Of a stretch of 64,000 bases of DNA, positions 3,370 through 21,816 are shown one piece after another (position 1 is the stretch's first letter; every line of letters starts with the position of its first letter). The stretch covers positions 1,682,157 through 1,746,156 of the forward strand of contig CP070836.1 of assembly GCA_020341795.1 (NCBI GenBank), given 5' to 3'. This stretch comes from Thermoplasmatales archaeon. Its GTDB lineage: Archaea; Thermoplasmatota; E2; DHVEG-1. A program made the translations under genes and the position numbers. Under the pieces are notes generated by a model, which saw nothing but the letters and a program-made list of their open reading frames with translations, was not told the DNA's origin and did no database searches.

Positions 3370-3926
3370 TTGACTTTAAAAGGAAAAAAGCTAGAGAGAG
3401 TTAGTACTTTAAGACTATAGTGAAGAAGACCTTTAAATCTTATTAGCCAACGTCGAATCTAATCTATTATTTTTAAGAGGACTAATAATATCGATTTTAA
3501 GGATAATCTCCACATCTTACAGTTCTAGTTTGATTAGGATTTAAATAAATCTCAGCAGTTTTTTAACATTCTTTGGTAAAATTTAAAAGGCTATTAATTA
3601 TTATTACAGTTAAATATAGACAAACGTGGATGGGGACCATTTAATTGTTTTCAAAAAAATCTCTAGAGGGGACGAGAAAACATGAAGAAGATTATTATGA
3701 TAGATGTAACTATCAGGATTTGAATCTTATTTGCTTAAATAAAGAAAATGCTGAAGTATTTGACGACGTTGATAATCTTATTAAAAGTATTCTTGTTAAA
3801 AGTAAGTATTCTTCATATAAGAAACAAGTTACAGATATATTTGAAAAACATTTTTTTAATAATAAACCTTTCACCAAAAGGTCAAGGAATCAAACAGGTA
3901 TCAGAATTATATTCAGAAATGGTAAG

Positions 3927-6158
3927 ATGAAATCTGTTAAAAAAATGTTACCGTTTGTTCTATCATTTATAATGTTTTTTGCTGTTTTAGATTCTGTTGG
4001 TTCTTTTGATATAAAAGATGCAGTGGATTCTAATGTTACTGATATGGACAGCAGTGCAGATATTGGAGTGGAGAATAATTTTCCTAATGCTCAGGATATA
4101 TATCCTGATTTTAACAATATGAATATCCAAGAGAGTTATACATATGGATTGCCAAGTGAAGAAGATTTATATGTCAATGCTTATGACAGCACTTATATTA
4201 ATTGGATACCTTTAGGCGTATCACCATATTTAGATACAGTAGACGCTTCTAATATTATTAAATCTAAATCAGAAGGAACAATGGGATGGTTTGATTTTCC
4301 CGCAACTACAAAAACTGGATATCTTACAGTTGATGCAGAAATTTATGTTAATAGTTGGGATGGGGATGTATTAATAGAATTTGAATGGACAGGAGATACA
4401 ACAGCAGATGCAAGTATTCAAACAACTGGACCAACATCTAATTGGTATGAATTAGGAACTGTAACAGGTCTTGACAATGCAACAGAAGTGGACAACTGTA
4501 GGATAAGAGTAGTTTGGGCTGCAAGTAAAAACAATTGGATAGAAATAGATGCTTTCCGTTTGGAAGTGTCAGAATCTACGGATAGTTATGAAATAGATTT
4601 TGAATATAATTGGAGCAACGCGGACTATGATGAGTCAAATGAAGAAATATGTTTTTATGTTAGTAGTCATACAGGTAATGAGAACCTTAATGTAAGCTAC
4701 TGGTCTGGTTCTTGGACTTATCTTGGTCAAATAACAAACACAGGTTGGACAAATCTTACAGCAACAGGTCTCTCTGATGCCACCTATGAAATACAGCTAA
4801 AAGGAGATAACGAGTCAAGTGATAGTATTCAGGATGACTGGAATATCGATGTTATTATGTTGCATACTTGGACTACACCTACAGTCCCAATCGTCTTAAC
4901 AAACTTTTCAACAGGAGTTGAAGAAAACAATGCTACATTAAATGGATATCTGCAAAGCAACGGAAGCGCAGACACAACTACTTACTTCCTATGGGACAAT
5001 GATGCATCAGGAGAACCATACGCAAATAATCAGAGTAATGGTATAACGGCGAATTTAAGTGAATTCCAATTCGACGCAACAAGTCTAACAAGCGGAGATT
5101 TATACTATTTTAACACAAAAGCAAATAATAGCGCAGGATGGGATGATAGTGGAGGAGAATTAACCTTCTTCACCAAACCACCAGCAGTGACTAGCTTCAT
5201 AGAAAGTGCTTCAACTAACACTAGCCTTACCTACACATGGATAGAAGCAACTGTTGGCAGCGGTGCAACCGCATATTCAAGGATTCAGTATAAAACCGGA
5301 AGCAATCCAACATCAATCAGCGATGGAACTAATACCTATAACGGAACTGATGAAACCGACAACACTGGTAGTCTGAATCCTGGGACACACTATTACTTCA
5401 GCGCGTTCAGCTGGGGAATCGAAAGTACTGTAGGAAACTGGAATGATACATACGATACCATGGACGCCTGGACTAACCCTGGAGATCCAACAAGTGTAAG
5501 CACAACCAATGGAACAAACTGGATAAATGTTACATTCACACATGGGACTAATGGATCCTATACCATGATCCGTCGAAATACTACTGGATCAGCATATTAC
5601 CCTGCAGATCGCTCCAGCGGCGTCCTAGTTGATAATACCACCCACCAATATGCCAATGACATCAGTCTCAACTCTGGTATTACCTATTACTATAGTCTTT
5701 GGACCTGGGATCCCGATGGTAAGAAATGGTGCGACAACAAAATCACCATAGCTGAAAACACCTCTTGGAATACATCAATAGAAATCATCCCGGAGCAGTG
5801 GATTCAGGGAAATATATGGATAGGGGACACCAATGCTACAACTGGTTTTTATTTTAATCTTACAAACGAGGGAAATGTTGCTTTAAACATACAAATAAAT
5901 GCAAGTAATGCTACTAACTCTTCAACAGGTGCTGAATGGAAACTCAATTCAACACCGAGTAACGATAATTTTACGCTTCAGTATAACAAGAGTGGTGGTG
6001 GTACCTGGACTAATATTAACACTACATATGATGTTTTTGTCACCAACTTGGGTGTAAATTCCTGGCAGACTTTTGATTTGAAACTGATTATGGCTACTGA
6101 ATCATCTACAGAAGATCCATTATCTTTTGAAGTGACATTCAAATCTGTAAAAGCATAA
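3927..6158 (+). CDS. Large secreted Asn/Thr-rich protein with Fn3-like repeats and a C-terminal beta-rich domain; no membrane anchor
   Basis: The ORF is open from 3645, but the likely start is the in-frame ATG at 3927 (MKSVKKMLPFVLSFIMFFAVLDSVG, a signal peptide). Repeated Fn3-like segments occur (LTNFSTGVEENNATLNGYL..., TKPPAVTSF..., PGDPTSVSTTNGTNWINVTF...). The C-terminal 129 aa (5769-6155) resemble the product of 8388-8912. Confidence 0.6.
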   Translation: MKSVKKMLPFVLSFIMFFAVLDSVGSFDIKDAVDSNVTDMDSSADIGVENNFPNAQDIYPDFNNMNIQESYTYGLPSEEDLYVNAYDSTYINWIPLGVSPYLDTVDASNIIKSKSEGTMGWFDFPATTKTGYLTVDAEIYVNSWDGDVLIEFEWTGDTTADASIQTTGPTSNWYELGTVTGLDNATEVDNCRIRVVWAASKNNWIEIDAFRLEVSESTDSYEIDFEYNWSNADYDESNEEICFYVSSHTGNENLNVSYWSGSWTYLGQITNTGWTNLTATGLSDATYEIQLKGDNESSDSIQDDWNIDVIMLHTWTTPTVPIVLTNFSTGVEENNATLNGYLQSNGSADTTTYFLWDNDASGEPYANNQSNGITANLSEFQFDATSLTSGDLYYFNTKANNSAGWDDSGGELTFFTKPPAVTSFIESASTNTSLTYTWIEATVGSGATAYSRIQYKTGSNPTSISDGTNTYNGTDETDNTGSLNPGTHYYFSAFSWGIESTVGNWNDTYDTMDAWTNPGDPTSVSTTNGTNWINVTFTHGTNGSYTMIRRNTTGSAYYPADRSSGVLVDNTTHQYANDISLNSGITYYYSLWTWDPDGKKWCDNKITIAENTSWNTSIEIIPEQWIQGNIWIGDTNATTGFYFNLTNEGNVALNIQINASNATNSSTGAEWKLNSTPSNDNFTLQYNKSGGGTWTNINTTYDVFVTNLGVNSWQTFDLKLIMATESSTEDPLSFEVTFKSVKA

Positions 6159-6360
6159 GATGTTTGATATGTAGGTATGGATACACTATAAAGATTTTAG
6201 ATAATTTTTCTATTTAGCCATTTTGTTACAATGTAAATTTTACCAACTTGCTATTTTACCAAATTATTTTTAAATATAATTAATGAGAGAATGTATCGTG
6301 TTATCACATATCAATATAGGTTGTAATATTCAAAACAACCAAGAAACGGAAGGAAAAAAG

Positions 6361-8097
6361 ATGAAAGGAAGGCAAAAGAAAAAAAGAAGGATTTCCTTAT
6401 TCATATTTACCATTACTTCTGTTTTTATATTTTTTATACCAACTGGGCTAACCAATGAAGAAATAACCCTTGGTTTTAAACCTAATCTAGGAAATATACC
6501 ACCTTATCAGCCAACAGATCCTTATCCTCCAGATGGAGCTACAAATCTCGAGATCCCTGTAACATTAAACGTCAACGTGCCAGATCCAGATACCGACCCA
6601 ATGGACGTGTATTTTTATAACGCATTAGATGACTCTATTATCGGAACGGATACAGTTCCAAATGGATCAACTGCCTCATGCACCTGGAGTGGATTAGCAC
6701 CAAATACTATCTATCGTTGGTATGTTGTAGCCAATGATTCCGAATACGAAAACACCTCATCCATATGGAGTTTCACAACTGAATCATCATATGGTAGTGG
6801 AGGAGGTTCTCCCCCACCAGTAAATCAAAAACCAATAGCCAAAGTTACAGGCCCTGATACTGGATACGTTAATGAATACATATCTTTCTCAGTTCAATAT
6901 AGCTATGACCCTGATGGAGATATTACCGGTTACCGATGGGATTTTAACAATGATGGATTATTTGATACCGACTGGATTGAAGATACACTCATGACTTATA
7001 CCTATTTCCAACCTGGTAATTATTCCGTAAAACTTCAAGTAAAAGATGATGATGATGCCACTTCTACCGACTCCTATGTGATAACTATTATACAACAAGA
7101 GCCGGATCAACAATCTCCTGTAGTTCAGGCCAATGGACCGTATGATGGACTTGTATATGAAAACATTACTTTCACCGGCGTCGGCAGCTTCGATCCCGAT
7201 GGAACAATAGTTAACTATACCTGGGACTTTGGAGATGGAATAATAAGATATGGAATTGAAATAATCCATAGCTATAACATCTCAGGGATATATAACATAA
7301 CACTGAGTGTTACAGACAATTACAACCTTACTAGTAATAATACCACCGTAGCTAATATCTTGATAGACTCTGATGGAGACGGCTGGAGTGATGAAATAGA
7401 AAAATCATACGGAACAAACATATCAGATCCAAATTGCCAACCATTAGATAGTGATAGCGATGGAATACCTAACAATGATTCATTGGATGGCAACTATACA
7501 GGAGACATTGATAATGATAACGATGGGCTCGACGATGAAACAGAAAAAATATTTGGAACAGATCCCAACAATGAAGTAGATGTAATAAAACTAGAAATAG
7601 AAGAAAAAACTTATTATCTCATCAACACAAACAATGATGAACAAAGTGACATCCTCTATATCCCATTTACTGAGGAAAACACAATAATAAAATTAATAGA
7701 TGGTAAACTATATTTAGACACTGACAATGACAGTAAATGGAATTATATATATGATCCAACAACAACTCAAATTATGCTATATAAGCCAGAAGAAGAAAGT
7801 ATACAACTGCCTTTACTATTCTTAATAATTATTGCTATCATTGTTACAATCATTACCTTCCTGTTCATACGCAAACACTATGAAATCAATCGCCTGATAA
7901 AACAATTAAGTAAACTAAAGAAAAAACAACAAATATACAAAAAGAGAGCTAATAAACTTAGGAGTACCAAAAGAACTAATAGAAAAAGAGCAAGTACATA
8001 TTATCACACAAAATCCAGGAATTCCATAATAAAAACAAAAATAAAATCAAAGATTGTATCGCAAAAATCCGATAGAAAAAATCACAAAAAAATATAA
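6361..8097 (+). CDS. Membrane-anchored surface protein: signal peptide, two PKD-like domains, Asp-rich (thrombospondin type-3-like) repeats, TM segment, basic tail
   Basis: The likely start is MKGRQKKKRRISLFIFTITSVFIFFIP at 6361. PKD-like motifs are YDPDGDITGYRWDFNNDG and FDPDGTIVNYTWDFGDG. Asp-rich repeats are DSDGDGWSDEIEKSYGTN...DSDSDGIPN...DNDNDGLDDETEKIFGTDP. The TM segment is LPLLFLIIIAIIVTIITFLFI, followed by a Lys/Arg-rich tail. Confidence 0.7.
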   Translation: MKGRQKKKRRISLFIFTITSVFIFFIPTGLTNEEITLGFKPNLGNIPPYQPTDPYPPDGATNLEIPVTLNVNVPDPDTDPMDVYFYNALDDSIIGTDTVPNGSTASCTWSGLAPNTIYRWYVVANDSEYENTSSIWSFTTESSYGSGGGSPPPVNQKPIAKVTGPDTGYVNEYISFSVQYSYDPDGDITGYRWDFNNDGLFDTDWIEDTLMTYTYFQPGNYSVKLQVKDDDDATSTDSYVITIIQQEPDQQSPVVQANGPYDGLVYENITFTGVGSFDPDGTIVNYTWDFGDGIIRYGIEIIHSYNISGIYNITLSVTDNYNLTSNNTTVANILIDSDGDGWSDEIEKSYGTNISDPNCQPLDSDSDGIPNNDSLDGNYTGDIDNDNDGLDDETEKIFGTDPNNEVDVIKLEIEEKTYYLINTNNDEQSDILYIPFTEENTIIKLIDGKLYLDTDNDSKWNYIYDPTTTQIMLYKPEEESIQLPLLFLIIIAIIVTIITFLFIRKHYEINRLIKQLSKLKKKQQIYKKRANKLRSTKRTNRKRASTYYHTKSRNSIIKTKIKSKIVSQKSDRKNHKKI

Positions 8098-8387
8098 TAT
8101 ATTTTATTAAACAAACTAATTCTATGATAAATAAACAGATATCAAAAAAACTATTGGGAATATACATTTATCTTGTAATAATTCTCATATTTTTACTAAG
8201 TTACAATATAAGCGTAAGCTAACCTCAAGTTGCAAAAACGAAAATTTTAATAACTATTTTTTCATATTAGACCCAGCACTCTGTCTTTTATTACAGATAG
8301 AATAAATAAGTGTGAAATGATGGGATGCAAGAAAAAAAATAAAAAATATTGTAGAAAATTCATTTTAAGATAGGATGGGATGTAGAT

Positions 8388-8912
8388 ATGAAAATAAAAA
8401 AGACATTGATGATAGGTCTGATTTTAATTATGTTAGTCGTTGTATCATTTGCACCGGTATCAATCACTGTAATAGCAGCTACGACTGATACAATTACCAT
8501 AGAATTTGATCCTCAAGGTAATATCTCAATTGATGTTAGCCCAGGGACATACAATTTTAGTACATTTTGGTCTTATAGTGACGAATCTACAGGTGGAACA
8601 TATTTCACAATTTGGAATAATGGTACTGCAGACAACATGCAAACCGATATCCAGATAACAGGTAGTCCTGCTTCTCTAACAATAGATGAGGATAGTGAAC
8701 CTACTGCTGATGATAACTACGCGCTTTATCTAATAGGTGGCACTGCTTCAGGCATAAATGCATGGGTTAAAGAAAGCGCAACTATCCAGTTAGATAGTGA
8801 CCTTGATACAACTGGTACAGAAACTTTTGGTTTTCAACTTTACATATCTAACATTACAGCAAATCATACTTGGCAATCTATGACATTAACCTTGACGGGT
8901 TCACAAGCATAA
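8388..8912 (+). CDS. Small secreted beta-rich protein (174 aa), candidate fibre or structural subunit
   Basis: N-terminal signal or anchor MKIKKTLMIGLILIMLVVVSFAP. The remainder is Thr/Asp/Gly-rich with alternating beta-strand-like patterns (YFTIWNNGTADNMQTDIQITG, ETFGFQLYISN, MTLTLTG). There is no C-terminal anchor. Confidence 0.55.
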   Translation: MKIKKTLMIGLILIMLVVVSFAPVSITVIAATTDTITIEFDPQGNISIDVSPGTYNFSTFWSYSDESTGGTYFTIWNNGTADNMQTDIQITGSPASLTIDEDSEPTADDNYALYLIGGTASGINAWVKESATIQLDSDLDTTGTETFGFQLYISNITANHTWQSMTLTLTGSQA

Positions 8913-9031
8913 ATAAAAATAAAACACATAACTTTATTTCTTTATTTTTTATAATGTTATTATTTTATCAAAGATTAATAACAATGTTTTTAAGTAAAAT
9001 TAGTATATGATTTAATACTGGAGGATGGGCT

Positions 9032-9679
9032 GTGAGGATAATCAAGATTCTATTTTTAATTTTTTTATTTTTATTAATAGGCCTCAACATTTTTTTACCT
9101 CCTCCTGTTTCATCAGGTGGCCTATCTATATGGCCAGGAAAGCTAACTATCACAATGTCAGATGGTTATCCTGAGGAAGAAATCCAGTATGAAATCAAAG
9201 TAAGTAATAGTAATACCTATGATATCAATGTTACAGGAGAAATTGCAAACCCAAGTCTTCACCGTTTAATGAAGAATTATACTTTTATTCCTGATTTATC
9301 CTGGGTTCAAATCACATCTGATATCGTTCATATACCTGCTAAGGAATCACGTTTTTTAAAAGTAATTATTAATATACCTGATTCAGAAAAAACATTACAT
9401 TATAATGAACGCTGGGAAGTATGGATAGTAGTATCAGAATTAATTAATCAATCACAAGATGCTGGAGCTTTTATCCAGACTGAACTTGTTGTAAAATTTT
9501 TTATCATTACTCCATTTGTTGAAGAAAAGTCGCAAATACTACAATTTTTTTATTTAATAATATTATTTACTATAGGTGGATTATTAACTGCATATGTTTT
9601 CTATATCAAATCTCGCGGGAGAGATATATTTAGAAATAAACAGAGTGTTTTTTATTTTAAAAAATGGAAAAAACGTTGA
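9032..9679 (+). CDS. Single-pass membrane protein with an Ig-like ectodomain (paralog of 12369-12974)
   Basis: GTG start preceded by GGAGG. It has a signal peptide, an Ig/CARDB-like pattern (EIKVSNSNTYDINVTG), the conserved motifs NYTFIPDLSWVQI and WEVWIVV, a C-terminal TM segment (FFYLIILFTIGGLLTAYVFYI) and a basic tail. Confidence 0.6.
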   Translation: MRIIKILFLIFLFLLIGLNIFLPPPVSSGGLSIWPGKLTITMSDGYPEEEIQYEIKVSNSNTYDINVTGEIANPSLHRLMKNYTFIPDLSWVQITSDIVHIPAKESRFLKVIINIPDSEKTLHYNERWEVWIVVSELINQSQDAGAFIQTELVVKFFIITPFVEEKSQILQFFYLIILFTIGGLLTAYVFYIKSRGRDIFRNKQSVFYFKKWKKR

Positions 9680-9833
9680 GAAATCAAATCGTAGAAAGTA
9701 AGCAAAGAAAATAAATTATAACCATAAATATTCTTTTTCTGTTATTTTTGTATTTCTTATCTTGTTTTATGTTGTTTCTTGAATCTATATTAGTTCATTT
9801 TTTAGGATATATTTATCACAAAATTCAATTATG

Positions 9834-9918
9834 TGATTCATATATGAATCATATATGATTTATATATAAATCATATTTAAAGCAAAAATATATAAATAAA
9901 TGATTCATATATGATTCA
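9834..9918. promoter_or_regulatory. Three 18-bp operator-like palindromes upstream of the RHH gene
   Basis: TGATTCATATATGAATCA (9834-9851, perfect palindrome), TGATTTATATATAAATCA (9856-9873, perfect palindrome) and TGATTCATATATGATTCA (9901-9918, one mismatch). A TATA-like atatataaataaa at about 9888-9900 lies between sites 2 and 3. Site 3 ends 3 nt before the ATG at 9922. Confidence 0.6.
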
Positions 9919-9921
9919 AAC

Positions 9922-10110
9922 ATGGGTAAAATCCAGAGGTTTCCAGTTGGTTTTCCTCCCATCATACGGGAAATAATAAAACAACAAGTAGGCACACTAG
10001 GTAATTCCGAGGCTGAAGTCGTCAAAAACATGGTTCTTATTTATCTGACTGAAAAAGGAATGCTAAAACGCTTCGAAACCAAACATAAAAAGGAGGAGAA
10101 AAAAAGATGA
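9922..10110 (+). CDS. Ribbon-helix-helix (CopG/Arc/MetJ-like) small DNA-binding protein
   Basis: 62 aa. It has an N-terminal beta-strand (KIQRFPVGF), a helix (PPIIREIIKQQVG), the G-x-S turn (LGNSEAE) that opens helix 2, and a basic tail. Its stop overlaps the start of the next gene (10107). Confidence 0.6.
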   Translation: MGKIQRFPVGFPPIIREIIKQQVGTLGNSEAEVVKNMVLIYLTEKGMLKRFETKHKKEEKKR

Positions 10111-12305
10111 ACTGGAATCTTAAAGTCCAAAGAGTTCTCTTACTGACAATATTCTTTTTCATATTTATAGCACTCTCAATTACTATAAAATCAATTCCTC
10201 CTGTCACACAAGAAACATTAATAGTTGACATAAGTGGTAATGGAGACTATATCAGTATAAAGGAAGCAGTTAATAATGCCAAACCAACTGATATTATACA
10301 TATAAAAGAAGTAGTATATAAGGAAAATAATCTGGAGATCAATAAGAAAATAACGATCATAGGGGATAATCCTGACACTACAATTATTAACTGTGAAGAA
10401 AAAAACGGATTTATGTTTTCCAGTACATATGTTGATATAAAAAATATTCAACTAACAGACACCAAAGAATATGCAATTTATGTTCCATTTGAGAGTAATA
10501 GTTGTTCCATATCTAATTGTATTATAAACAAAGACACGGCAGGTGTTGGTATTTTAGTACGAGCTAATTCTGTAATTATTTCTAATTGTGATCTAAGGGG
10601 ATATAATAAAACTGCAATAGGTATCCAGTTACAAGAATATAACAATATTATCCAAGAGTGTACTATCCAAAGATTCGACGTAGGTATCTTAGTCATTCTA
10701 AATGCACATGATAACAAGATTCTAGATAGTAACCTATTGGACAACAAAAAAGCAGTAGACATTAGAATCAATTCAAATAACAATTTAGTAACTAATTGTA
10801 ATATCTACAGCAACAAAATAGGAGTTCATATCTGGCAAAGCTCCAATGATAATCTAATCTATCATAATAATCTCTGGAAAAACGATGAAGATGCAAAAGA
10901 TGAAAGTAATAATCAATGGGACAACGGTAATGTAGGAAACTATTGGGATGATTACATTGGTATTGACAACGATGGAAACAGCATTGGAGATACACCATTT
11001 ATAATATCTGCAGAAAATGCAGATAGATTCCCGATTGTAAACATGATTCTCCCAGATTTTATATCAATTCCAACTAATGTAAAACATGTGTCAAGCGTAT
11101 CTGATAACACTCCATCTTTTACATGGGATCCCTCGTTTTATAATAAAGGTGTCAAGGGGTATTATGTAAGGATAGATAGCAACCCTGAAATAAATATCGG
11201 TAACGATATAACAAGTTGGACTTCACCTGTTATCATCTCAGAAGGGATTCACAGTTTCTATGTCTGGGCAGAGGGCACCGATGATACTAATAGCAGCTAT
11301 GCCTCAATTACATTTTCGATTGATACCATATTTATAGACAACGACCAAGACGGATGGTCTGATGAAGAAGAGCAAAGATATGGTACAAATCCAAATGATC
11401 CGGACAATTACCCCTTGGATACAGATAATGACCATATACCTAATCCTGTTGATTCCGATGATGATAACGATGGTTATAGCGATGACATGGAACGATCTTA
11501 TGGGACGGACACAGTTAACTTAAATAGTTATCCAATCGACACAGATGAAGATTATTTACCGGATGATGACTCACCAGATGGAATATACACTGGAGATATC
11601 GATGATGATAATGATGGCCTTATAGATATATTTGAAATAAACCTTGGATCTAACCTATTAGATGGAACAGATGTAATAAAAATCTATATCGACGGAAAGC
11701 CATATTATCTTGTTGATATATCAAAGAGTGGACAATATGATATCATTTATGAACCAAGTAGAAAATCTACAACTGCCGTAGAAATTTATGATGAAAATTA
11801 TCTTATAGATCTAAATGGGGATGGCTCATGGGACTATATGTACTATGTTTTAGATGGAACAGTATCTGAATATGCCGAAATAGTTTTACCGTGGACGTTT
11901 GTTACCGGAATACTATCAATCCTGGTAATACTCTTTATTATATCAATTATCGTTATATATTATATTAGAATTAGACCCATAAAATATATATTCTATAAAG
12001 AAGCAAAGAAACCTGTTGAAAAACGAATGATTAAAAAACCCTTTAAATTCTATGCTGACGATAAAGATACTATTAAGATGATTAGTCAAACAAAATACCT
12101 TCTACAAAATATTCAACGGGATGTAACAGTATATATGGATAAACTGAATCAAATCGAAGATCAAATCGAAATGACTATAGCTGAAGATGAGGAGGCTTCA
12201 ACATCTTTAGAAAAGTATACAAGTAAACCAACAAACAATGTTGATATAGAAAAAGAAGTAGATGAACTCCTATCACGATTCAGTAGAGATGACAAACAGC
12301 AGTAA
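10107..12305 (+). CDS. Membrane-anchored surface protein: NosD/CASH-type right-handed beta-helix, Asp-rich repeats, TM segment, acidic coiled-coil tail
   Basis: It starts with a signal or anchor. Parallel beta-helix repeats (ISNCIINKD..GILV.., ISNCDLRGY.., IQECTIQRF.., ILDSNLLDN.., VTNCNIYSN..) are followed by NYWDDY...GDTPF. Asp-rich repeats are DNDQDGWSDEEEQRYGTNP...DTDNDHIPN...DDDNDGYSDDMERSYGTD. The stalk region is homologous to 6361-8097. The TM segment is ILSILVILFIISIIVIYYI. Confidence 0.7.
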   Translation: MNWNLKVQRVLLLTIFFFIFIALSITIKSIPPVTQETLIVDISGNGDYISIKEAVNNAKPTDIIHIKEVVYKENNLEINKKITIIGDNPDTTIINCEEKNGFMFSSTYVDIKNIQLTDTKEYAIYVPFESNSCSISNCIINKDTAGVGILVRANSVIISNCDLRGYNKTAIGIQLQEYNNIIQECTIQRFDVGILVILNAHDNKILDSNLLDNKKAVDIRINSNNNLVTNCNIYSNKIGVHIWQSSNDNLIYHNNLWKNDEDAKDESNNQWDNGNVGNYWDDYIGIDNDGNSIGDTPFIISAENADRFPIVNMILPDFISIPTNVKHVSSVSDNTPSFTWDPSFYNKGVKGYYVRIDSNPEINIGNDITSWTSPVIISEGIHSFYVWAEGTDDTNSSYASITFSIDTIFIDNDQDGWSDEEEQRYGTNPNDPDNYPLDTDNDHIPNPVDSDDDNDGYSDDMERSYGTDTVNLNSYPIDTDEDYLPDDDSPDGIYTGDIDDDNDGLIDIFEINLGSNLLDGTDVIKIYIDGKPYYLVDISKSGQYDIIYEPSRKSTTAVEIYDENYLIDLNGDGSWDYMYYVLDGTVSEYAEIVLPWTFVTGILSILVILFIISIIVIYYIRIRPIKYIFYKEAKKPVEKRMIKKPFKFYADDKDTIKMISQTKYLLQNIQRDVTVYMDKLNQIEDQIEMTIAEDEEASTSLEKYTSKPTNNVDIEKEVDELLSRFSRDDKQQ

Positions 12306-12368
12306 ACAGCAATACAATGATTATAGTGTGAAAGTTTACAAACTTCATAATAGAAAAAGTATGATAAT

Positions 12369-12974
12369 ATGAAAAAAACAGTCTCATTAATGACCATAAT
12401 TTTATTTTTGTTGATGTTAATTCCAATATGTAAAGGAGACTTTATTGTTCAACCTCGAGAAATATCAATTACGATGGATAACGAGTTCATCCTTAGTAAT
12501 ACGTCAAAAAAAATCATGATAACAAACAACAACGATTACAGCATTAACATCTCATGGTATCTTGAACATCCTAATCCTATCTCCTGGATGAGACCAAATA
12601 AAACGTTTATCCCTAGTTTATCCTGGATTGATTTAAATCCTAAATGGTATATTATCCCGCCAGATGATAGTGTTTCGTTTTATATCTATTTATATGTCCC
12701 TGAAAGTAAAGATCATCTGAAACAAAATTGGGAGACATGGGTTACTTTTAAAAAAGAATACCAAGAGGGCATATTTAACCAAGAACACGCTGTGAGGATA
12801 TATATAGATACTCCCATCATAATGACAAATAATAATAATTATAGTCAAAATAAGCCATCGATACCAAGAAAAGAACACATAAACATCCCATTCTTAGTTA
12901 TAGTGATTTCAGTAGTTTTTGTGATAATACCACTGGCACTAGGTGGTTTATCTTTCAAAAAGAAGAAATCATAG
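12369..12974 (+). CDS. Single-pass membrane protein with an Ig-like ectodomain (paralog of 9032-9679)
   Basis: It has a signal peptide, the pattern KKIMITNNNDYSINISW, the conserved motifs NKTFIPSLSWIDL and WETWVTF, a C-terminal TM segment (IPFLVIVISVVFVIIPLALGGL) and a KKKKS tail. Confidence 0.6.
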   Translation: MKKTVSLMTIILFLLMLIPICKGDFIVQPREISITMDNEFILSNTSKKIMITNNNDYSINISWYLEHPNPISWMRPNKTFIPSLSWIDLNPKWYIIPPDDSVSFYIYLYVPESKDHLKQNWETWVTFKKEYQEGIFNQEHAVRIYIDTPIIMTNNNNYSQNKPSIPRKEHINIPFLVIVISVVFVIIPLALGGLSFKKKKS

Positions 12975-14853: not shown

Positions 14854-16017
14854 TTATATGTATAATGGAAACGTAATTATATCCTGTATATCCATTGAAG
14901 CATTATTTTCATTATTATAAGCAATTACTCTTAATTCATGTGTACCACATTCTTCGCATGGTAAATACCATTCAAATGGTTTTTTAGAAATATTATATTT
15001 TAAATTTTTATCAATATAAACCTTGACATTTCTAGTATCCTTAGAAGCATCCATTTTAATAGTAGTCCCTTTTATTATTATAGCTTCTCCTTTTTTTACA
15101 ATAAATTTTCGCAATAATGATTTTTTCCAAGAAATATTATTAAAATACATCTTACCTCTTTTTGGACTTTCTATGTAAACTTTTGGTACATCGGGTTGGA
15201 AATTACCATATACACCATCTATATATAATATACCAGTACCTCCATAAAAACCTATGAAAAATGGTTGAAGAGGTCTATGCGCATTATATGATACTCTTAT
15301 CCATCCTTCCTCACCCCAACCTTTTCCCCAGCTGTTTTTTATAAGCCAACATTGTTGACTATCATCATAACCAAATATAGTAATAACATGTCCTCCTTCT
15401 ATTTTACCCCATAGATTTCTATAAATTCCACCTGAGTATCTCTGGAAATCACTTCTTACTATCATACATATCACTAATGGTCCGTAATTGATCAAAGCAT
15501 TTTTTATAGAGTCTATATCAGTATCTACCCATCCCCAGTTTTCAATTTTAATTGTTCTATTTTCCCATCCTGGAAGTACATCATCAGGGGAGCTATCCCA
15601 TGGTCTTCCAGGATCTGGATAACATCCTTCATCTGGAACCCCAACTTCTTTTAGTTGAGTCATACATTTTTTTATATCAACTCCCCAGTCACATGTACCA
15701 CCTGAACTAAAAAATAAATGCATTTCTGAAAGATCACATTCGAATGGGTAACCAACTTTGTATTGTATTATTGTTTCAAGAGAAGCAACTAACGCATATG
15801 CCTCACAACTTGGACAGGGTGCTTGGTTTTTTATGGAGGTTGAATAATCAATTCCATTTATATTACACCAGTTAAAAGATGATGGTAATTCTTTATTTTC
15901 TTCCTTGTTTATTTCATTTTTTTGTATTATTTGAGGGGTAAAAAGAGGTGAAAAAATTATATTAGTAAGAAATAAAGCTATTATTATTGATGATTTTGTT
16001 AGATATTTTTTCTCCAT
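14854..16017 (-). CDS. Exported papain-family (C1) cysteine peptidase with a C-terminal beta-sandwich domain
   Basis: Signal peptide. The catalytic Cys region is NQAPCPSCEAYALVASLE, the His region is GGHVITIFGYDD, and WLIKNSWGKGWGEEGWIRVSY is also present. Confidence 0.8.
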   Translation of the reverse strand: MEKKYLTKSSIIIALFLTNIIFSPLFTPQIIQKNEINKEENKELPSSFNWCNINGIDYSTSIKNQAPCPSCEAYALVASLETIIQYKVGYPFECDLSEMHLFFSSGGTCDWGVDIKKCMTQLKEVGVPDEGCYPDPGRPWDSSPDDVLPGWENRTIKIENWGWVDTDIDSIKNALINYGPLVICMIVRSDFQRYSGGIYRNLWGKIEGGHVITIFGYDDSQQCWLIKNSWGKGWGEEGWIRVSYNAHRPLQPFFIGFYGGTGILYIDGVYGNFQPDVPKVYIESPKRGKMYFNNISWKKSLLRKFIVKKGEAIIIKGTTIKMDASKDTRNVKVYIDKNLKYNISKKPFEWYLPCEECGTHELRVIAYNNENNASMDIQDIITFPLYI

Positions 16018-16042
16018 AGATAATATCTCACATTTGAATTAT

Positions 16043-18370
16043 TTATTTTAATAATTTTTTTATTAATGGTAGTTTTAAACTTTCAAATAATTTTAATATT
16101 GAAAAATCTTGAATTATACTCATTTTCGGCATTCTGACAGATAATGGATCTGACCATTCACTTTCATGTCCATTTGTATCTTTTGCTTTAACCTTTATCT
16201 TATAATTAGTCCTTATTTGCCATGTGTTTGATGCTTCTGCTTCTTCACCTGACTCATAGGGTCCTATCCATCCACTATTAGTTCCATCACCCCAGTAGAA
16301 AAAGTAATAAAGATCATTTCCTTGAGGATCAGTTGTAGAAGTAGTATAAGTGTATTCTACACCTGCACTTCCAGATATTGGACCTGATGGTGTTCTTGGT
16401 TTATTTGGTTGTTCATTTCCTATTTGGACTTTTTTTAGTGTACTAAAATCTCCCCATCCATGTTCAGAATTAAATCCTTTAACACGATAGTAAAAAATGC
16501 CATCTTGATGATTTGTAACTGAATAATAATTATTCTTAATATTATCTGAAAGGGTGGCAATTTCATCTATATCTGATATTGGTGATATGTCATCAACATA
16601 GAATCCTTCATTATTTCCTCCATAGTCACTACTATAACGAAATCGTATATATACTGATTCATTAGTATAGTCATCTAAACTATACTCTTTATATTCCCAA
16701 CCTTCTGAGGCACCATTGAATGAATCAAGAACATCATAAAGTCTTCCTTCTCGGCTGACTTCAACAAAAGCATAATCATATCTATTTTCCATATCATACC
16801 AGCACCAAAAAGATAGTACTGAACCTAATGATACTGGTACTGGATTTACACTAGTCATAGACGTTATACTCATGGAAAACGTCTCTGTTTTATAGGAATT
16901 ACTATCTGAATGCGGTCTATCCTCTGATATTTTAAAACCATCTAGAATCCATTTATCTGATCCTGATTCACTATCATCCACAATTAAATTTAAACTTCTA
17001 AACTCATCTAATTGAAATTTACTAGTTTCTGCTTCTGGATTTTTTTCAGTCCAGGAAATTACAAAATCTCTATATTTAAGATGACCGAGATCATCAATAA
17101 TTGGAGGTGCTACTCGTGGAATAACATTTTGTTTTATATTTTCAGCTTCTTTTAGTAAATAAAGGGCTCCTTCCCAGTTTTCTTTTGTAATTTGTTCAAG
17201 ATTAATACTTGCAGGATGATATGATTGGCAAGCTTCAATTGTATATGCAAAAAGAGGTTTACCTAATATATAATGATAATATCCATAAATCCAATCGGTG
17301 GTATCACCAGTTGTTGGATATAAACCTGCGGCTTGTGTAGGATAATATGTGTCTAAGTTATCCTGTGTGTTTATCTGATTTGCAATTCCTATACCGATTT
17401 GAGACATAAATTGATCATCAGGAGCTTGAACATCTCCTGAATACCCCCACGGCCACATAACAAGTTCTCCATGGGTATGCCAAGAGATTGTTGCTGTTAT
17501 GTCATTTTCAAGAAAAACTCTGCTTGCAGCTTGAATTTCAAGTTCTGACATAGGACTAGGACCACAATAGACTTCTGATTTAGGATTATGCTCAACAGAT
17601 CCACGGCCTATTGAACCCCATGTCCCGATTATATCACCATTACATGAACCAGGATAATTACGATTTAAATCCACCCCATATGTAAGTGTGTTTGGGAAAA
17701 AATGTCTATTTTTACGCCAATCATGACCTAAATCATGTGAAAAATAATATCCATCAGGATTGACACATGGGACAATCCAAATACGTAGATTATTTACAAG
17801 ATCAGTAATAACTGGATTAGAACCATATTGCGCTGTTAACTGTTGAGCAATGTACAGACAAATCTCCATTGTCGGCCATTCACGTGCATGATGAAGACCC
17901 ATAAAATACACACCAGTCTCACCTTCATCTACACCAGGATTATCAGATAATTCAAGACACCAAATATCTCGATTCTCATAACTTAATCCAAGACTATTAA
18001 GTTTAGCTATATTTGGGTAGTCATTAGCTATTTCATGTAAACTGTTTTCTAATTCCTCAAATGAGTGATAATCATCTGCAATATTCTGTAGATAAATATC
18101 TAGGTTATCAATAAGAATTGTGACATCTTCATTAGATGATAAAAAATCTTCAAAACTTGAGCTGGGAATAATTATATCCCACCATTTATCAGGTTTTCCG
18201 CCTATTATTTCATGATCTAAAGATAAAATATCAAAATTATTAATATTTGTTATTCTTACTAAAATACAATGGTCATCTGAAGATTGAGAATTAGTCAAAT
18301 TAACAGCAGATGCACAAGATATAGTTATTAGAAAAACACATAGAAAAATTGTAGGTAATTTATAATTCAT
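16043..18370 (-). CDS. Exported M14 zinc carboxypeptidase with additional C-terminal beta domains (PKD-like)
   Basis: The preferred start is MNYKLPTIFLCVFLITISCASA (ATG at 18370); the ORF is open to 18394. M14 motifs are YHSFEELENSLHEIANDYPN, GLHHAREWPT, NPDGY, WRKNR and VDLNRNY. The C-terminus is PKD-like (YYFFYWGDGTNSGW...KVKAKDTNGHESEWS). Confidence 0.8.
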   Translation of the reverse strand: MNYKLPTIFLCVFLITISCASAVNLTNSQSSDDHCILVRITNINNFDILSLDHEIIGGKPDKWWDIIIPSSSFEDFLSSNEDVTILIDNLDIYLQNIADDYHSFEELENSLHEIANDYPNIAKLNSLGLSYENRDIWCLELSDNPGVDEGETGVYFMGLHHAREWPTMEICLYIAQQLTAQYGSNPVITDLVNNLRIWIVPCVNPDGYYFSHDLGHDWRKNRHFFPNTLTYGVDLNRNYPGSCNGDIIGTWGSIGRGSVEHNPKSEVYCGPSPMSELEIQAASRVFLENDITATISWHTHGELVMWPWGYSGDVQAPDDQFMSQIGIGIANQINTQDNLDTYYPTQAAGLYPTTGDTTDWIYGYYHYILGKPLFAYTIEACQSYHPASINLEQITKENWEGALYLLKEAENIKQNVIPRVAPPIIDDLGHLKYRDFVISWTEKNPEAETSKFQLDEFRSLNLIVDDSESGSDKWILDGFKISEDRPHSDSNSYKTETFSMSITSMTSVNPVPVSLGSVLSFWCWYDMENRYDYAFVEVSREGRLYDVLDSFNGASEGWEYKEYSLDDYTNESVYIRFRYSSDYGGNNEGFYVDDISPISDIDEIATLSDNIKNNYYSVTNHQDGIFYYRVKGFNSEHGWGDFSTLKKVQIGNEQPNKPRTPSGPISGSAGVEYTYTTSTTDPQGNDLYYFFYWGDGTNSGWIGPYESGEEAEASNTWQIRTNYKIKVKAKDTNGHESEWSDPLSVRMPKMSIIQDFSILKLFESLKLPLIKKLLK

Positions 18371-18431
18371 ATAAATATGCCTCCAATAAACCATAATGTA
18401 GGAAGCATTATATAATTTTATTTAACATGCG

Positions 18432-19553
18432 TTAATTATGAGTTTTAATAAATTTTTGCAATCCTTTAATTGCGTGAAGTTTTTGTTTATTTCCAATTTT
18501 AGCCTGATTTATTCCAGATTTAATAATTATTATTGATTCATCCATAGCTTTTCGATCAACAGGGAAGGGTACGCCATCTTTACCGCCGACAGTAAAACTA
18601 TATTTAACAGGATCTTTCCAACTAGGTTTAGAACCATAAATAAGCTCAGATATTAATGCTAGAGCACGAACTGTATTTGTACCCACTCCATTTATTGATA
18701 AAAGTTCTTCGTAGTCTTTTGGTTGAAAATCATAAATTTTACGCATTGTATTCCAATTGATGCTACGTGGCATATCAAGACAAATTCTGCTTTTTTTATT
18801 ATTATCAACTGAAAAAAAACTATCTAATCTTTTCTGATAAATTTTGTTATTTAGATATAAAAAATCATTTTTTATATGATTAGGATTATCGTTTACAAGA
18901 TCTACACAAACTTTCTGACAATTCTCACTATTTTTTGAAGACATGTCAAGTACTTTTGAATTACTCTTCTCGCCAATTATGCTACTATGAGGATTACAAA
19001 GAAAATTATCAAATTTATCTGAAAACCAATGATATCGTCGAGCATAATTTGTCTCATCATTCATACCTTGTTGTATAACACTCCATTTACCGTCCTCAGT
19101 TAAAAAGAAGACATGATGATAAAGATTATGACCATCTTGAACAGCTGAATTATCAACTTTAGCAGTCATACGACTTGCATATTTAATTTCATCAATCTTA
19201 GTAGTAGATATGTTAAAATAATTACCTATCTTTTCAAGCTCTTCAGGTGTTTTTCTTGATACTTTACCTTTACCGCCAGCAATTCCAATACCGTGTTCTT
19301 CAGGATTTAGAGCTTCTTTTAAAGCTCCGCAAGTAACAGTGGTTGTACCACTAGAGTGCCAGTCAAATCCTAAAACACAAGAAAGACATTGAAACCAAAA
19401 AGGATTGGAAATGTGTCTTAAAAATTCCTCTTTACCATATTCCATTATTATTGCTTCAATTATACCTTCTGATAGGGAAACCATTCTTCTAAATAACCAT
19501 TTTGGAGCGCTACCACCATGTAATGGTAGATTCGCAATTCCTGTTTTCCACAT
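18432..19553 (-). CDS. Conserved archaeal protein, DUF763-like
   Basis: 373 aa. The N-terminus IANLPLHGGSAPKWLFRRMVSLSEGI...WHSSGTTTV is recalled as typical of DUF763. The function is unknown. Confidence 0.45.
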   Translation of the reverse strand: MWKTGIANLPLHGGSAPKWLFRRMVSLSEGIIEAIIMEYGKEEFLRHISNPFWFQCLSCVLGFDWHSSGTTTVTCGALKEALNPEEHGIGIAGGKGKVSRKTPEELEKIGNYFNISTTKIDEIKYASRMTAKVDNSAVQDGHNLYHHVFFLTEDGKWSVIQQGMNDETNYARRYHWFSDKFDNFLCNPHSSIIGEKSNSKVLDMSSKNSENCQKVCVDLVNDNPNHIKNDFLYLNNKIYQKRLDSFFSVDNNKKSRICLDMPRSINWNTMRKIYDFQPKDYEELLSINGVGTNTVRALALISELIYGSKPSWKDPVKYSFTVGGKDGVPFPVDRKAMDESIIIIKSGINQAKIGNKQKLHAIKGLQKFIKTHN

Positions 19554-19765
19554 GATTATTTTAAAATTAGAATTACTATTTTAATTATTTACTATAAGGT
19601 AATTAAAACTATGAGATGTACTTGAGTACTTTTAATTATCTCTTTTTTAGGTTTATATAGTATTATTGCAGTACATGATATTAGATTGACGAAATGATAC
19701 GGGGGACATGCCAGCCCCCCAACTGGCTGGCATTTCTGCCAATATTTAGAATTAATATTTTGCAT

Positions 19766-19787
19766 CCCTCAACCCATTCCCATCCCC
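19766..19787 (-). other. Canonical G-quadruplex-forming motif (G-rich on the minus strand)
   Basis: The minus strand reads GGGGATGGGAATGGGTTGAGGG: four G3+ tracts with loops of 2, 3 and 4 nt. It lies in the divergent intergenic region between the DUF763-like gene and the NFACT gene. Confidence 0.4.
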
Positions 19788-19845
19788 TCCTTTTTTTCTT
19801 TTATGATACTTTTTTAATATTACCACTTGTATTCACATAGAGTTT

Positions 19846-21816
19846 ATGATACGCAGTCTTTCATCATTTGACATCTACGTTTTAATAGATGAATTGCAGG
19901 AAATCGTAGATGACATTGTAGATAAAATATATCAATTATCTCGTGACGAGATACTAATTAAAGTTAAAAATATTAAAACCAAGAAAAAACAAAACATATA
20001 CATTAGAAACGGTAAATTTTTAACTATTACAAATAAAAATTTTTCAACACCTGATAGACCATCAGTTTTTGCTTTAACATTACGAAAATATCTTATGAAT
20101 GGCATTATAAGCAGTATTGTCCAACATGAGTTTGACAGAATATTAAAATTCAATATAAGTAAAAAAGAAGGAGAATACACTCTTGTCGTTGAACTATTTT
20201 CAAATGGTAATATAATATTAGTAGATCCATCTAAAAAAATAATTCTTCCATTGATAAAACAATCTTGGGCACATAGAAAAATAAAAGGTCGTGAAGAATA
20301 TACTCCACCTCCATCTCAGACAAATCCTTTTAAACTATCTAAAGAAAAATTTGCAGAACTTATTAAAAACAGCAGCACAGATATTGTTAGAACTCTTGCT
20401 GTTAGTGTTAATTTAAGTGGCATTATTGCTGAGGAAATATGTAATCGTGCTAATGTTGATAAAAAAATAGCAGTAAAGGAAATTAATGATAAAACCATAA
20501 ATAGAGTTTATAAATCTTTGAATAATTTTTTAGATATTTTTAAAAAAAAGGATTTTAATCCTGTTTTTGTAAAAGAAAATAATGTTATTGTTGATATATT
20601 ACCATTTGAATTTACAAGCTTTAAAAGTCATAATTTTGAAGAAATAAATAGATTTTCAAAAGGTTTAGAATTTTTTATTAACAAAAAAGAAAAAGTGGTT
20701 AAAAAAGAAGAATCAAAAGCTGATGAGAATCTTGGGAAATTAGAGCGTCAGCTTACTCAACAGAAAGATAGAATTTTATCATTAGAAGAAGAAATTAAGA
20801 GAAAAAAGCTTGAAGGTGATCTTATTTACCTTCATTATCAAGATATTGAGCAGATTTTAAAAGATATTAAAAATGTTTTAAATCTTACGGAAAAACATAT
20901 CGAAATTAAAAAAATCAATGAAAAAAAAATAGTAAAAAAATTTGTTCCTGATCAAAAAATATTAATTATTAACCTATCTGATACTAAAGGTCAGGTTTTT
21001 GATGTAAAAATTAATCATAGACTTTCAGTTGCAGATAACGCTGAAAAAGCATATGATGAAAATAAAAAGTTTAAAACCAAACTTTCTGGTGCAAAAAAAT
21101 CTTTGAATAAGACATTAGAAGAAATACAAAAAGTCAAAGAAAAGAAAAAAATCGAAGATCAGAAAGCTGTTAAAAAAATTGTAAAAAAAGAAAAATATTA
21201 TTGGTTCGAACGTTTCCGCTGGTTTATCTCATCTGAAGGAAATATTATTGTTGGAGGTCGTGATGCTAAAACAAATGATATTGTTGTTAAAAAATATCTC
21301 AAAGAGGGAGATCGTTATTCACATGCTGACGTTCAAGGTGCTCCCAGTATAGTTATTAAAAGTAAAAATTTTCAGGGTATACAAATTCCAATATCTGAAA
21401 ACACTTTAGGAGAAGCATGTATATTTGCTGCAAGCTTTAGTAAAGCATGGAAACAGTTTGCAGAAGCACAAGCATATTGGGTTCTTCCGGAGCAAGTAAG
21501 CAAATCTCCCCAAAGTGGAGAGTTTGTTCCTCATGGTGCATTCATTATTAGGGGAAAAAGAAACTATCTACGATGTAAGTTAGAAGTAGCATTAGGTAAG
21601 ATTGTTTTAGAAAATACAGAAAAAGTTATGTGCGGACCAGTCAGTGCTATAAGAAAGTATAGTAAGAATTTTGTTGTTCTTGTCCCAGGTAATATAACAA
21701 AAACTGAAATTGCAAATAAGTTAAGTAAGATTTTTGATGTCAATGTCGATGAAATAGATCGTGTTTTACCATCTGGTGGTTCACAAGTAGTTGACTCTAT
21801 AGGTGTTAAAATATGA
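19846..21816 (+). CDS. NFACT-family protein (FbpA/Rqc2/NEMF homolog) with a DUF814-type C-terminal module
   Basis: 656 aa. The N-terminal NFACT-N pattern is SFDIYVLIDELQ...IDKIYQ. A long Lys/Glu coiled-coil middle follows. The DUF814-like segment is YWFERFRWFISSEGNIIVGGRDAKTNDIVVKKYL..GDRYSHADVQGAPSIVIK. Confidence 0.85.
   Translation: MIRSLSSFDIYVLIDELQEIVDDIVDKIYQLSRDEILIKVKNIKTKKKQNIYIRNGKFLTITNKNFSTPDRPSVFALTLRKYLMNGIISSIVQHEFDRILKFNISKKEGEYTLVVELFSNGNIILVDPSKKIILPLIKQSWAHRKIKGREEYTPPPSQTNPFKLSKEKFAELIKNSSTDIVRTLAVSVNLSGIIAEEICNRANVDKKIAVKEINDKTINRVYKSLNNFLDIFKKKDFNPVFVKENNVIVDILPFEFTSFKSHNFEEINRFSKGLEFFINKKEKVVKKEESKADENLGKLERQLTQQKDRILSLEEEIKRKKLEGDLIYLHYQDIEQILKDIKNVLNLTEKHIEIKKINEKKIVKKFVPDQKILIINLSDTKGQVFDVKINHRLSVADNAEKAYDENKKFKTKLSGAKKSLNKTLEEIQKVKEKKKIEDQKAVKKIVKKEKYYWFERFRWFISSEGNIIVGGRDAKTNDIVVKKYLKEGDRYSHADVQGAPSIVIKSKNFQGIQIPISENTLGEACIFAASFSKAWKQFAEAQAYWVLPEQVSKSPQSGEFVPHGAFIIRGKRNYLRCKLEVALGKIVLENTEKVMCGPVSAIRKYSKNFVVLVPGNITKTEIANKLSKIFDVNVDEIDRVLPSGGSQVVDSIGVKI

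Follow-up and report, generated by a model that had tools for sequence, protein, structure and literature searches.

WxL clusters of Lactobacillales and Bacillales combine a small protein consisting of one domain only (small WxL/CscB), a large protein bearing that domain at its C-terminus (large WxL/CscC), and an immunoglobulin (Ig)-like protein with a C-terminal transmembrane (TM) helix (WxLIP/CscA, with the architecture DUF916-DUF3324-TM) (PMC10599100; PMC9772566). AlphaFold2 (AF2) predicts that a strand of WxLIP fills a gap in the WxL sandwich (PMC10599100; PMC9772566), and the large WxL proteins also bear beta-helix, Ig-like, and adhesin-like passengers (PMC9772566). In another direction, the tafi system comprises a TafC tip with a LamG domain, a TafE adapter, the major subunit TafA, the TM anchor TafF, and a small regulator (PMC11821415), while AbpX loci hold tip, minor-subunit, and anchor genes (bioRxiv 10.64898/2026.01.04.697558). 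Strand complementation is so far known for chaperone-usher pili and TasA-type fibers and predicted for the WxL complexes. Here, we describe a gene cluster of comparable layout in a Thermoplasmatales archaeon (assembly GCA_020341795.1, contig CP070836.1, positions 1,682,157 to 1,746,156; this stretch of 64,000 nucleotides (nt) is the window throughout). At its core are a large exoprotein of 744 amino acids (aa), a secreted protein of 174 aa, and a membrane-anchored partner of a family that we call A5. A sequence-only reading had held that the last ~129 aa of the large protein are a copy of the small one, and had compared the pair to tip adhesins docking onto fibers made of a major subunit. Our analysis indicates that the two genes and their membrane-anchored partner constitute a cell-surface module that is conserved, has no annotation, and probably assembles through the swapping of beta-strands.

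The segment in question, encoded by 5769-6155, corresponds to the last 129 aa of the open reading frame (ORF) ending at 6158. Its BLASTP match to the small protein (34% identity over 88 aa, E = 7e-4 for the single comparison) is marginal. Homologues were gathered for both sides, 41 of the small protein and 25 of the C-terminal segment, the latter mostly C-terminal fragments whose larger parent proteins are unrelated further upstream. From these, we aligned 28 small-protein homologues (A1) and 21 C-terminal domains (A2), alongside a broader alignment of free small proteins (A4). Profile-profile comparison with hhalign united A2 with A1 at a probability of 95.9% (E = 6.1e-9, 119 aligned columns) and with the mature part of A4 at 99.8% (E = 1.7e-27, 125 columns), and a hidden Markov model (HMM) built from the free small proteins of A4 alone matched residues 605-742 of the 744-aa protein (E = 4.8e-26). 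The four blocks that had been matched by eye all lie, in their original order, within one collinear hhalign alignment. The score of 57.3 for the real pair compares with 14.6 for a reversed profile and at most 16.5 in 30 column shuffles, ruling out an artefact of N/T/G-rich composition. Further, the AF2 monomer models of the two domains (pLDDT 75 and 81) possess at least six collinear core strands, and their weak Foldseek neighbors overlap, with 11 identical chains across both top-50 lists; the least confident part of both models is the first strands of the domain. Judged from these profiles, the C-terminal ~135 residues of the large protein are a true homologue of the neighboring small secreted protein, as the sequence-only reading had anticipated.

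The shared domain is the hallmark of a larger family. A HMMER scan with the small-protein profile against 1.84 billion cluster representatives (50% identity) recovered at least 137 relatives, about 15 of them large proteins matched only at their very C-terminus. The family consensus reads ATTDTITVTFTPSG-NVSIDVSPSTYDFG...TYFTLTNNGTV.V.V.I...W.L...PG.D.F.L...L....SQTFGLKLYMPT.SS...Q..TVTLTA, and its members come in two architectures. The first is a free protein of ~170 aa with a signal peptide, an A-x-A cleavage site, an amphipathic N-terminal strand, and the domain, an order that the 174-aa protein shares. In the second, the domain forms the extreme C-terminus of large proteins that vary in their passenger regions; all 28 fused copies end 0-7 residues before the C-terminus of the protein. 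Such strict placement is expected if the last strand of the domain lines an acceptor groove. The copy in the window stops two residues short of the stop codon and contains the invariant ASNATN...W-x-L motif. A single W-x-L is present in many family members and invariant in the C-terminal copies, while the 174-aa subfamily is devoid of it. As a separate observation, one N-x-S/T sequon falls within the invariant ASNATN motif, 10 lie in the last 129 aa, and 31 in the whole 744-aa protein (4.2 per 100 residues versus 2.4 expected); this enrichment suggests that the protein may be heavily N-glycosylated or carry a conserved glycan site.

The two architectures tend to differ in the strand preceding the domain. 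In the free form it has the consensus ATTDTITVTFTP, placed directly past the A-x-A cleavage site with hydrophobic residues at positions 6, 8, and 10 (the alternation I/V-x-V/I-x-F), and AF2 places a strand at residues 33-40 of the 174-aa protein; in its subfamily (A1), F40, D41, P42, and N45 are nearly invariant. For 141 of 168 free proteins the HMM match sets in no later than position 4, and for 19 of the 28 fused copies no earlier than position 9; the broad A2-A4 alignment leaves out the first 14 mature residues of the free subunit. The N-termini, as judged by eye, fit a Sec signal with an A-x-A site and not the type IV pilin (class III) pattern of K/R-G/A followed by a hydrophobic stretch.

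The provenance of this domain is less apparent. Scans of 55 members and of consensus sequences placed it in no Pfam or NCBIfam model at threshold; the sub-threshold matches are to the HYDIN, ASH, DUF1573, and choice-of-anchor-D Ig domains, over the F-T-x-x-N-x-G half of the domain. Sequence searches of the PDB found no relatives for A1, A2, or A5, and only AbpX, marginally, for A4. Foldseek searches of the PDB with both models returned no match better than E = 1e-2 (TM-score < 0.45), the best weak neighbors being jelly-roll-type folds (CUB, the C-terminal domains of CPE and Pgp3, Ena1C/Ena3A, and Cry domain III).

The sequence-only reading had also gained an impression of TasA/camelysin-like sandwiches, which finds an echo only in the similarity to AbpX. 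TasA, AbpA, thread, and AbpX are not among the 50 best Foldseek matches of either model, and Peptidase_M73 and DUF1102, which that reading had named as models to search for, gave no Pfam match, including with consensus sequences at E <= 10. Nor did a SipW-like signal peptidase, also suggested there, turn up in the cluster, the window, or loci L001-L012 of the context survey described below; a crude motif scan of all ORFs in the window and these loci, together with Pfam scans of flanking genes, found no S26 signal peptidase. AbpX itself, with its sequence taken from the paper's supplement and verified against 9SJ2, matches the family HMM at E = 0.005-0.05 and is found in the PDB by hmmsearch at E = 0.02-0.05. 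The domain-only HMM scores it at 17-20 bits, as against at most 12 in 300 shuffles. Comparison by hhalign, made with a single AbpX sequence and not a profile, gave a probability of 21-23% (E = 1e-3), with a shuffle maximum score of 17-18.6; membership of the TasA superfamily has been assigned at HHsearch probabilities above 80-95% (PMC12518558). A TasA sequence stayed at the null level against the family HMM. The family thus appears weakly similar, marginally above the null, to AbpX, a subunit of TasA-superfamily fibers assembled by donor-strand complementation.

We surveyed the genomic context of the family across 21 non-redundant loci from archaea and one Dehalococcoidia bacterium. A gene of family A5 follows or flanks the free subunit in 14 of the 16 loci with enough downstream sequence; on inspection, L025 also qualifies, and L011 carries a protein of A5 architecture that had escaped detection. 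Upstream, a larger ORF ending in the domain is present in about 9 of 12 loci. One such protein, from a Thermoplasmatales metagenome-assembled genome (MAG) in GTDB (L001), has 2025 aa and a BNR_2 domain, and the one in L003 has at least 1500 aa; in L026, two giant proteins that both have the domain are encoded in tandem (at least 1633 aa and 1668 aa). Other passenger regions contain DUF2341 and Laminin_G_3. Free subunits usually number one or two per locus and occur in tandem in L001, L003, L006, and L026. In the Dehalococcoidia locus (L009/L010, JGI Ga0568906_0004080 and Ga0568883_0013288), a 416-aa protein ending in the domain accompanies a 167-aa free subunit and a 162-aa A5-like protein, with a neighboring NAD kinase that clusters at >=90% identity with MGA7676827.1; transfer between the domains of life or an ancient origin are both possible. 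A scan of GTDB genomes with a narrow peptide pattern yielded one locus only. Some of the distant loci hold further surface-related genes: a subtilisin-like Peptidase_S8 gene, absent from the window cluster, adjoins L006 (7718-9226), L009 (1323-2297), and L011 (2920-4383) and could encode a maturation protease, and L006 has dockerin-like repeats in a 108-aa protein (12054-12380; Dockerin_1, E = 1e-4) as well as two FN3-rich proteins that end in such repeats (16908-20130), which hints at a second docking system of the cohesin-dockerin type in the same surface cluster.

In the window, the module lies in a cluster of six genes on one strand plus a conserved 62-aa ORF (3645-12974), bordered by tRNA-Met and primase genes on one side and a radical-SAM gene on the other. 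The window is AT-rich (~30% G+C), and its host contig in the MAG measures 1.79 Mb. Among the six proteins, only those of 744 and 174 aa are devoid of a membrane anchor. Functional coupling of the large and small proteins sharing the domain is supported by the synteny, by the very different passengers, and by their being the sole unanchored pair in the six-gene cluster. The docking logic of the sequence-only reading is plausible overall: the homology and the coupling of the two proteins stand, and the small protein would be a putative polymerizing 'major subunit'. The features of the cluster are collected in the table.

Features of the surface-protein cluster (positions are those of the window)
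Feature	Position	Strand	Remarks
Large exoprotein	3645..6158	+	837 aa from TTG 3645; 744 aa from ATG 3924, the start taken in the sequence-only reading
C-terminal subunit-like domain of the large protein	5736..6149	+	residues 605-742 of 744
PKD/TSP3-repeat surface protein	6358..8097	+	C-terminal TM helix and basic tail
Nucleotide box GGATGGGATGT	8373..8383	+	5 nt 5' of the small-subunit start codon
Free small subunit, 174 aa	8388..8912	+	NCBI UCB58625.1 / JSV67_08505; Sec signal peptide (~residues 1-30); no TM anchor
N-terminal extension of the mature small subunit, ATTDTITIEFDPQG	8478..8519	+	amphipathic beta-strand, alternating hydrophobic residues
Second nucleotide box GGATGGGCTGT	9023..9033	+	overlaps the GTG start of the 215-aa gene
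Membrane-anchored partner (family A5), 215 aa	9032..9679	+	signal peptide, one Ig/PapD-like beta-sandwich, C-terminal TM helix, basic tail
Conserved 62-aa ORF	9922..10110	+	no Pfam match
Right-handed beta-helix (NosD/pectinesterase-like) and TSP3-repeat surface protein	10107..12305	+	C-terminal TM helix
Second A5 paralogue, 201 aa	12369..12974	+	signal peptide, Ig-like domain, TM helix

The membrane-anchored partner matches no Pfam model at threshold. Its weak matches are of the PapD/ASH/fn3_5 type (PapD_N, fn3_5, Cep192) over a single Ig-like domain. That A5 might hold yet another copy of the subunit domain was suggested by an initial hhalign comparison (55%, E = 1e-4). The signal was lost after trimming of the signal peptide and TM helix, the trimmed A5 scoring 15.5 against the subunit family versus a shuffle maximum of 15.0, and we rejected this reading as unproven.

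Taken together, we propose that the cluster encodes a modular cell-surface appendage for a wall-less cell; Thermoplasmatales and Dehalococcoidia alike have no peptidoglycan wall. That the large and small proteins physically assemble through the shared domain we regard as likely. A more specific scheme, which may well hold though we would stop short of calling it probable, is a short donor-strand chain or fiber in which the free subunits form the body, the large protein the cap, and A5 the hold on the membrane. The building block would be the ~135-aa beta-sandwich domain. After Sec export, cleavage of the 174-aa protein past A-x-A would expose the amphipathic N-terminal strand TDTITIEF, which would enter the incomplete sandwich of a neighboring domain copy by donor-strand complementation, and free subunits would in this way chain into a short stalk or fiber. 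The large exoprotein, with the same domain at its extreme C-terminus and usually without the conserved donor strand, would for that reason accept a strand and be unable to extend the chain. It would accordingly sit at the distal end, displaying its variable adhesin- or enzyme-like passenger, while the 215-aa A5 protein would hold the proximal end at the membrane as an anchor, a tethered chaperone, or both.

Several observations weigh against the fiber. Strand exchange and polymerization are, like the polarity and the role given to A5, purely what we infer. The presence of the donor strand in one form and its absence from the other is a tendency and not a rule: 9 of the 28 C-terminal copies align from HMM positions 4-6 through the preceding strand. 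The one in the window is among them; its alignment starts at position 4 and takes in KITIAEN, probably the final strand of the FN3-like domain ahead of it. Once trimmed, A5 has no significant similarity to the subunit family, so by its sequence it does not qualify as an anchor of the TafF type. The Foldseek searches with the predicted structures give no pilin or TasA-like match better than E = 1e-2, and neither the cluster nor the window has a dedicated signal peptidase or a DUF5305 gene, unlike TasA, AbpX, and tafi loci. Finally, the large protein may have a cytoplasmic N-terminal region followed by a signal anchor, which would put it on the membrane and not at a fiber tip.

This last point turns on the start of the large gene. 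The start at ATG 3924 is not certain, as the ORF is open upstream to TTG 3645, and a hydrophobic signal-like segment directly follows 3924. The product of 3645-3923 is hydrophilic, ~90 aa long, and shares 28% identity over 85 aa with the N-terminus of the L001 homologue of 2025 aa (E = 9e-5). The large protein may begin either with a cytoplasmic region and a signal anchor or with a signal peptide that has a long n-region. The protein also has FN3-like repeats and no C-terminal TM helix; its passenger region matched no Pfam family, and the exact 744-aa sequence found no match in the protein collection.

A platform of the WxL type could do without a polymer altogether: the free and the C-terminal domains would sit side by side on A5, one of whose strands would complete their sandwiches and so tether the large exoprotein to the membrane. 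We see this as a lesser possibility, in which much of the genomic evidence would nonetheless find a place, namely the three-part architecture of WxL clusters, A5 adjoining the free subunit in 14 of 16 loci, the usual one or two free subunits per locus, the one W-x-L in many members and all C-terminal copies, the beta-helix and Ig-like passengers also seen in large WxL proteins, and the AF2-predicted gap-filling strand of WxLIP (PMC10599100). What it leaves unexplained is the N-terminal strand, nearly invariant in the free subunit and lacking in most C-terminal copies. Moreover, the WxL model PF13731 has no match in the window proteins, the 55 family members, or the consensus sequences even at E <= 10. 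The domain measures ~135 aa with at most one W-x-L, as against 160-190 aa with two, and in the 174-aa subfamily the motif has disappeared; A5 comprises a single Ig domain and not DUF916 plus DUF3324, with WxLIP_PGBD reached sub-threshold (E = 0.004) by 1 of 27 members. There is also no peptidoglycan to bind in Thermoplasmatales.

Another reading takes the domain for an ordinary ligand-binding module, such as a carbohydrate- or glycan-binding sandwich, used both stand-alone and C-terminally in two proteins that do not touch. Stand-alone proteins resembling carbohydrate-binding modules are known, the weak Foldseek neighbors include CBM36, a collagen-binding domain, the claudin-binding domain of C. 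perfringens enterotoxin, Cry domain III, and CUB, and the neighboring beta-helix, PKD, BNR, and LamG proteins suggest polymer binding or degradation. Yet none of those structural matches is significant (best E ~1e-2, TM-score < 0.45), and free use as a binding module fits poorly with the extreme C-terminal position in 28 of 28 fused copies, the retention of three genes together across archaea and Dehalococcoidia, the conservation of the N-terminal strand in the free form only, and the lack of an anchor in these two proteins only; we consider it improbable. The strict C-terminal position would also suit a sorting or secretion tag like the C-terminal domain of the type IX secretion system, recognized by a surface machinery and perhaps removed by a protease, with the small proteins as tag-only substrates or decoys. 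The recurrent Peptidase_S8 gene by distant loci (L006, L009/L010, L011/L012) could provide such a protease, but the window cluster has none, nor any translocon-like component, and the passengers already have Sec signals. Free domain-only proteins also outnumber the tagged ones, which a tag does not predict. We consider this reading very improbable indeed. Assembly of the two proteins through their shared domain remains our preferred account, with strand exchange as its candidate mechanism.

The rest of the cluster suggests a unit that was duplicated: an A5 paralogue comes after the beta-helix gene, much as the small subunit and, next to it, A5 come after the PKD gene. The two A5 paralogues of 201 and 215 aa match each other at E = 7e-18. 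The PKD and beta-helix proteins have a common C-terminal stalk (7350-7750 and 11310-11840; 36% identity, E = 2e-25) comprising TSP3-type calcium-binding repeats and a conserved beta-rich module ahead of the TM helix. The position of the PKD gene between the large protein and the small subunit is kept in L001, L002, and L003. The second A5 paralogue stands directly after the beta-helix gene in both the window and L002, and the equivalent place downstream is also taken by an A5 gene in L013, L025, and L026, with the gene in between unassigned. Between the A5 and beta-helix genes sits the 62-aa ORF, which shares 84% identity with its positional counterpart in L002 (5772-5963), compared with 71% for the small subunit; its pattern of a short strand and two helices suggests a regulator of the ribbon-helix-helix type. 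Just past the cluster on the opposite strand (14854-18394) are genes for a papain-family peptidase (Peptidase_C1) and a zinc carboxypeptidase (M14 plus a MAM-like domain), which would suit a sediment archaeon that degrades proteins.

At the nucleotide level, a conserved box, GGATGGG(A/C)TG, overlaps the start codons of the small-subunit and A5 genes or lies at most 14 nt 5' of them. It recurs in L001 (9929, 10715), L002 (3941), and L003 (6794, 7482, 8098). Extra copies occur ~70 nt upstream, and a near copy of the GGATGGGATGT box is found at ~8318-8328; exact matches in the 64-kb window number two only. In some homologues the box is in frame, which leads gene callers to N-termini of the type 'MGC...', and in others it is out of frame; it is therefore an RNA- or DNA-level signal. 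From its sequence, it may be either a Shine-Dalgarno-like ribosome-binding site (8 of 11 positions match AGGAGGTGATC) or a translational control element common to both genes. In the same region (9007-9034), the T-run 5' of the 215-aa gene has one T fewer than in close homologues of 223-224 aa (e.g. P0201, which starts MIFNTGGWAV...). This puts the upstream ATG out of frame, so that the 215-aa gene starts at GTG 9032; the missing T may reflect either strain variation or a homopolymer error of the assembly.

The module offers a concrete, testable answer to how wall-less lineages hold large secreted adhesins and enzymes on their surface. If strand complementation is true of it, that mechanism would extend to a new protein family and to new lineages. 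The module would also help to annotate hundreds of surface proteins from sediment metagenomes that are listed as 'hypothetical'. The organisms are uncultured, but the short sequences suit AlphaFold 3 modeling and recombinant assembly work.

More generally, the domain family is new, fairly widespread, and without a Pfam or NCBIfam model, whereas the layout of large, small, and anchored Ig-like proteins is already known from WxL clusters. Of the comparisons drawn in the sequence-only reading, the WxL set indeed proved the best architectural match, with the same three parts side by side here. We found no literature on WxL-like clusters in archaea or Dehalococcoidia. Beyond the shorter domain with one W-x-L or none in place of two, and the single Ig domain of A5 in place of the two of WxLIP (DUF916 and DUF3324), the module differs from WxL clusters in matching none of PF13731, PF06030, and DUF3324 at threshold and in the conserved N-terminal strand of its free subunit. 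In hosts without peptidoglycan, the membrane-anchored partner would provide the anchorage in place of the wall.

The resemblance to chaperone-usher pili is one of logic. Like FimH and PapG, the large protein would be a two-part tip with a C-terminal copy of the subunit that mostly has no donor strand, while the free subunits carry an N-terminal strand as FimA and PapA carry their donor extension, and the accessory Ig-like protein has weak PapD/ASH-like sequence features. In contrast to those pili, there is no usher, outer membrane, or periplasm, and the six cluster genes include none that is usher-like; A5 is single-domain and membrane-anchored, unlike the two-domain periplasmic PapD, and no sequence or significant fold relation to pilins was found (best BPSL1626, E = 0.09).

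With the TasA superfamily, the module shares a Sec-exported subunit of ~150-190 aa with an amphipathic N-terminal strand directly past the cleavage site, several subunit paralogues, a large lectin-bearing 'tip' candidate sharing the subunit domain, a membrane-anchored component, and a small regulator-like ORF. The weak fold neighbors are likewise jelly-roll-like, and the marginal similarity to AbpX runs over the F-T-L-x-N-x-G and F-x-L-x-h-x-h-P motifs. The variable, lectin-like passengers (BNR_2, Laminin_G_3, DUF2341) resemble the LamG tip of TafC (PMC11821415). Conversely, the domain is C-terminal in the tip candidate of the window and N-terminal in TafC, the membrane partner A5 is not subunit-like, and no significant profile match links the module to Peptidase_M73, TasA, or DUF1102. 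A joint reading of these likenesses, which we offer tentatively and hold to be rather doubtful, is that of an unrecognized donor-strand fiber on a far branch of TasA/AbpX, in sediment Thermoplasmatales-like archaea and Dehalococcoidia without peptidoglycan. Its tips would be interchangeable giant lectin or enzyme proteins, docking by a C-terminal, acceptor-only copy of the subunit, and a membrane-tethered PapD-like Ig protein would replace both chaperone and anchor. If true, this would tie together WxL clusters, chaperone-usher pili, and TasA-type fibers at the level of architecture.

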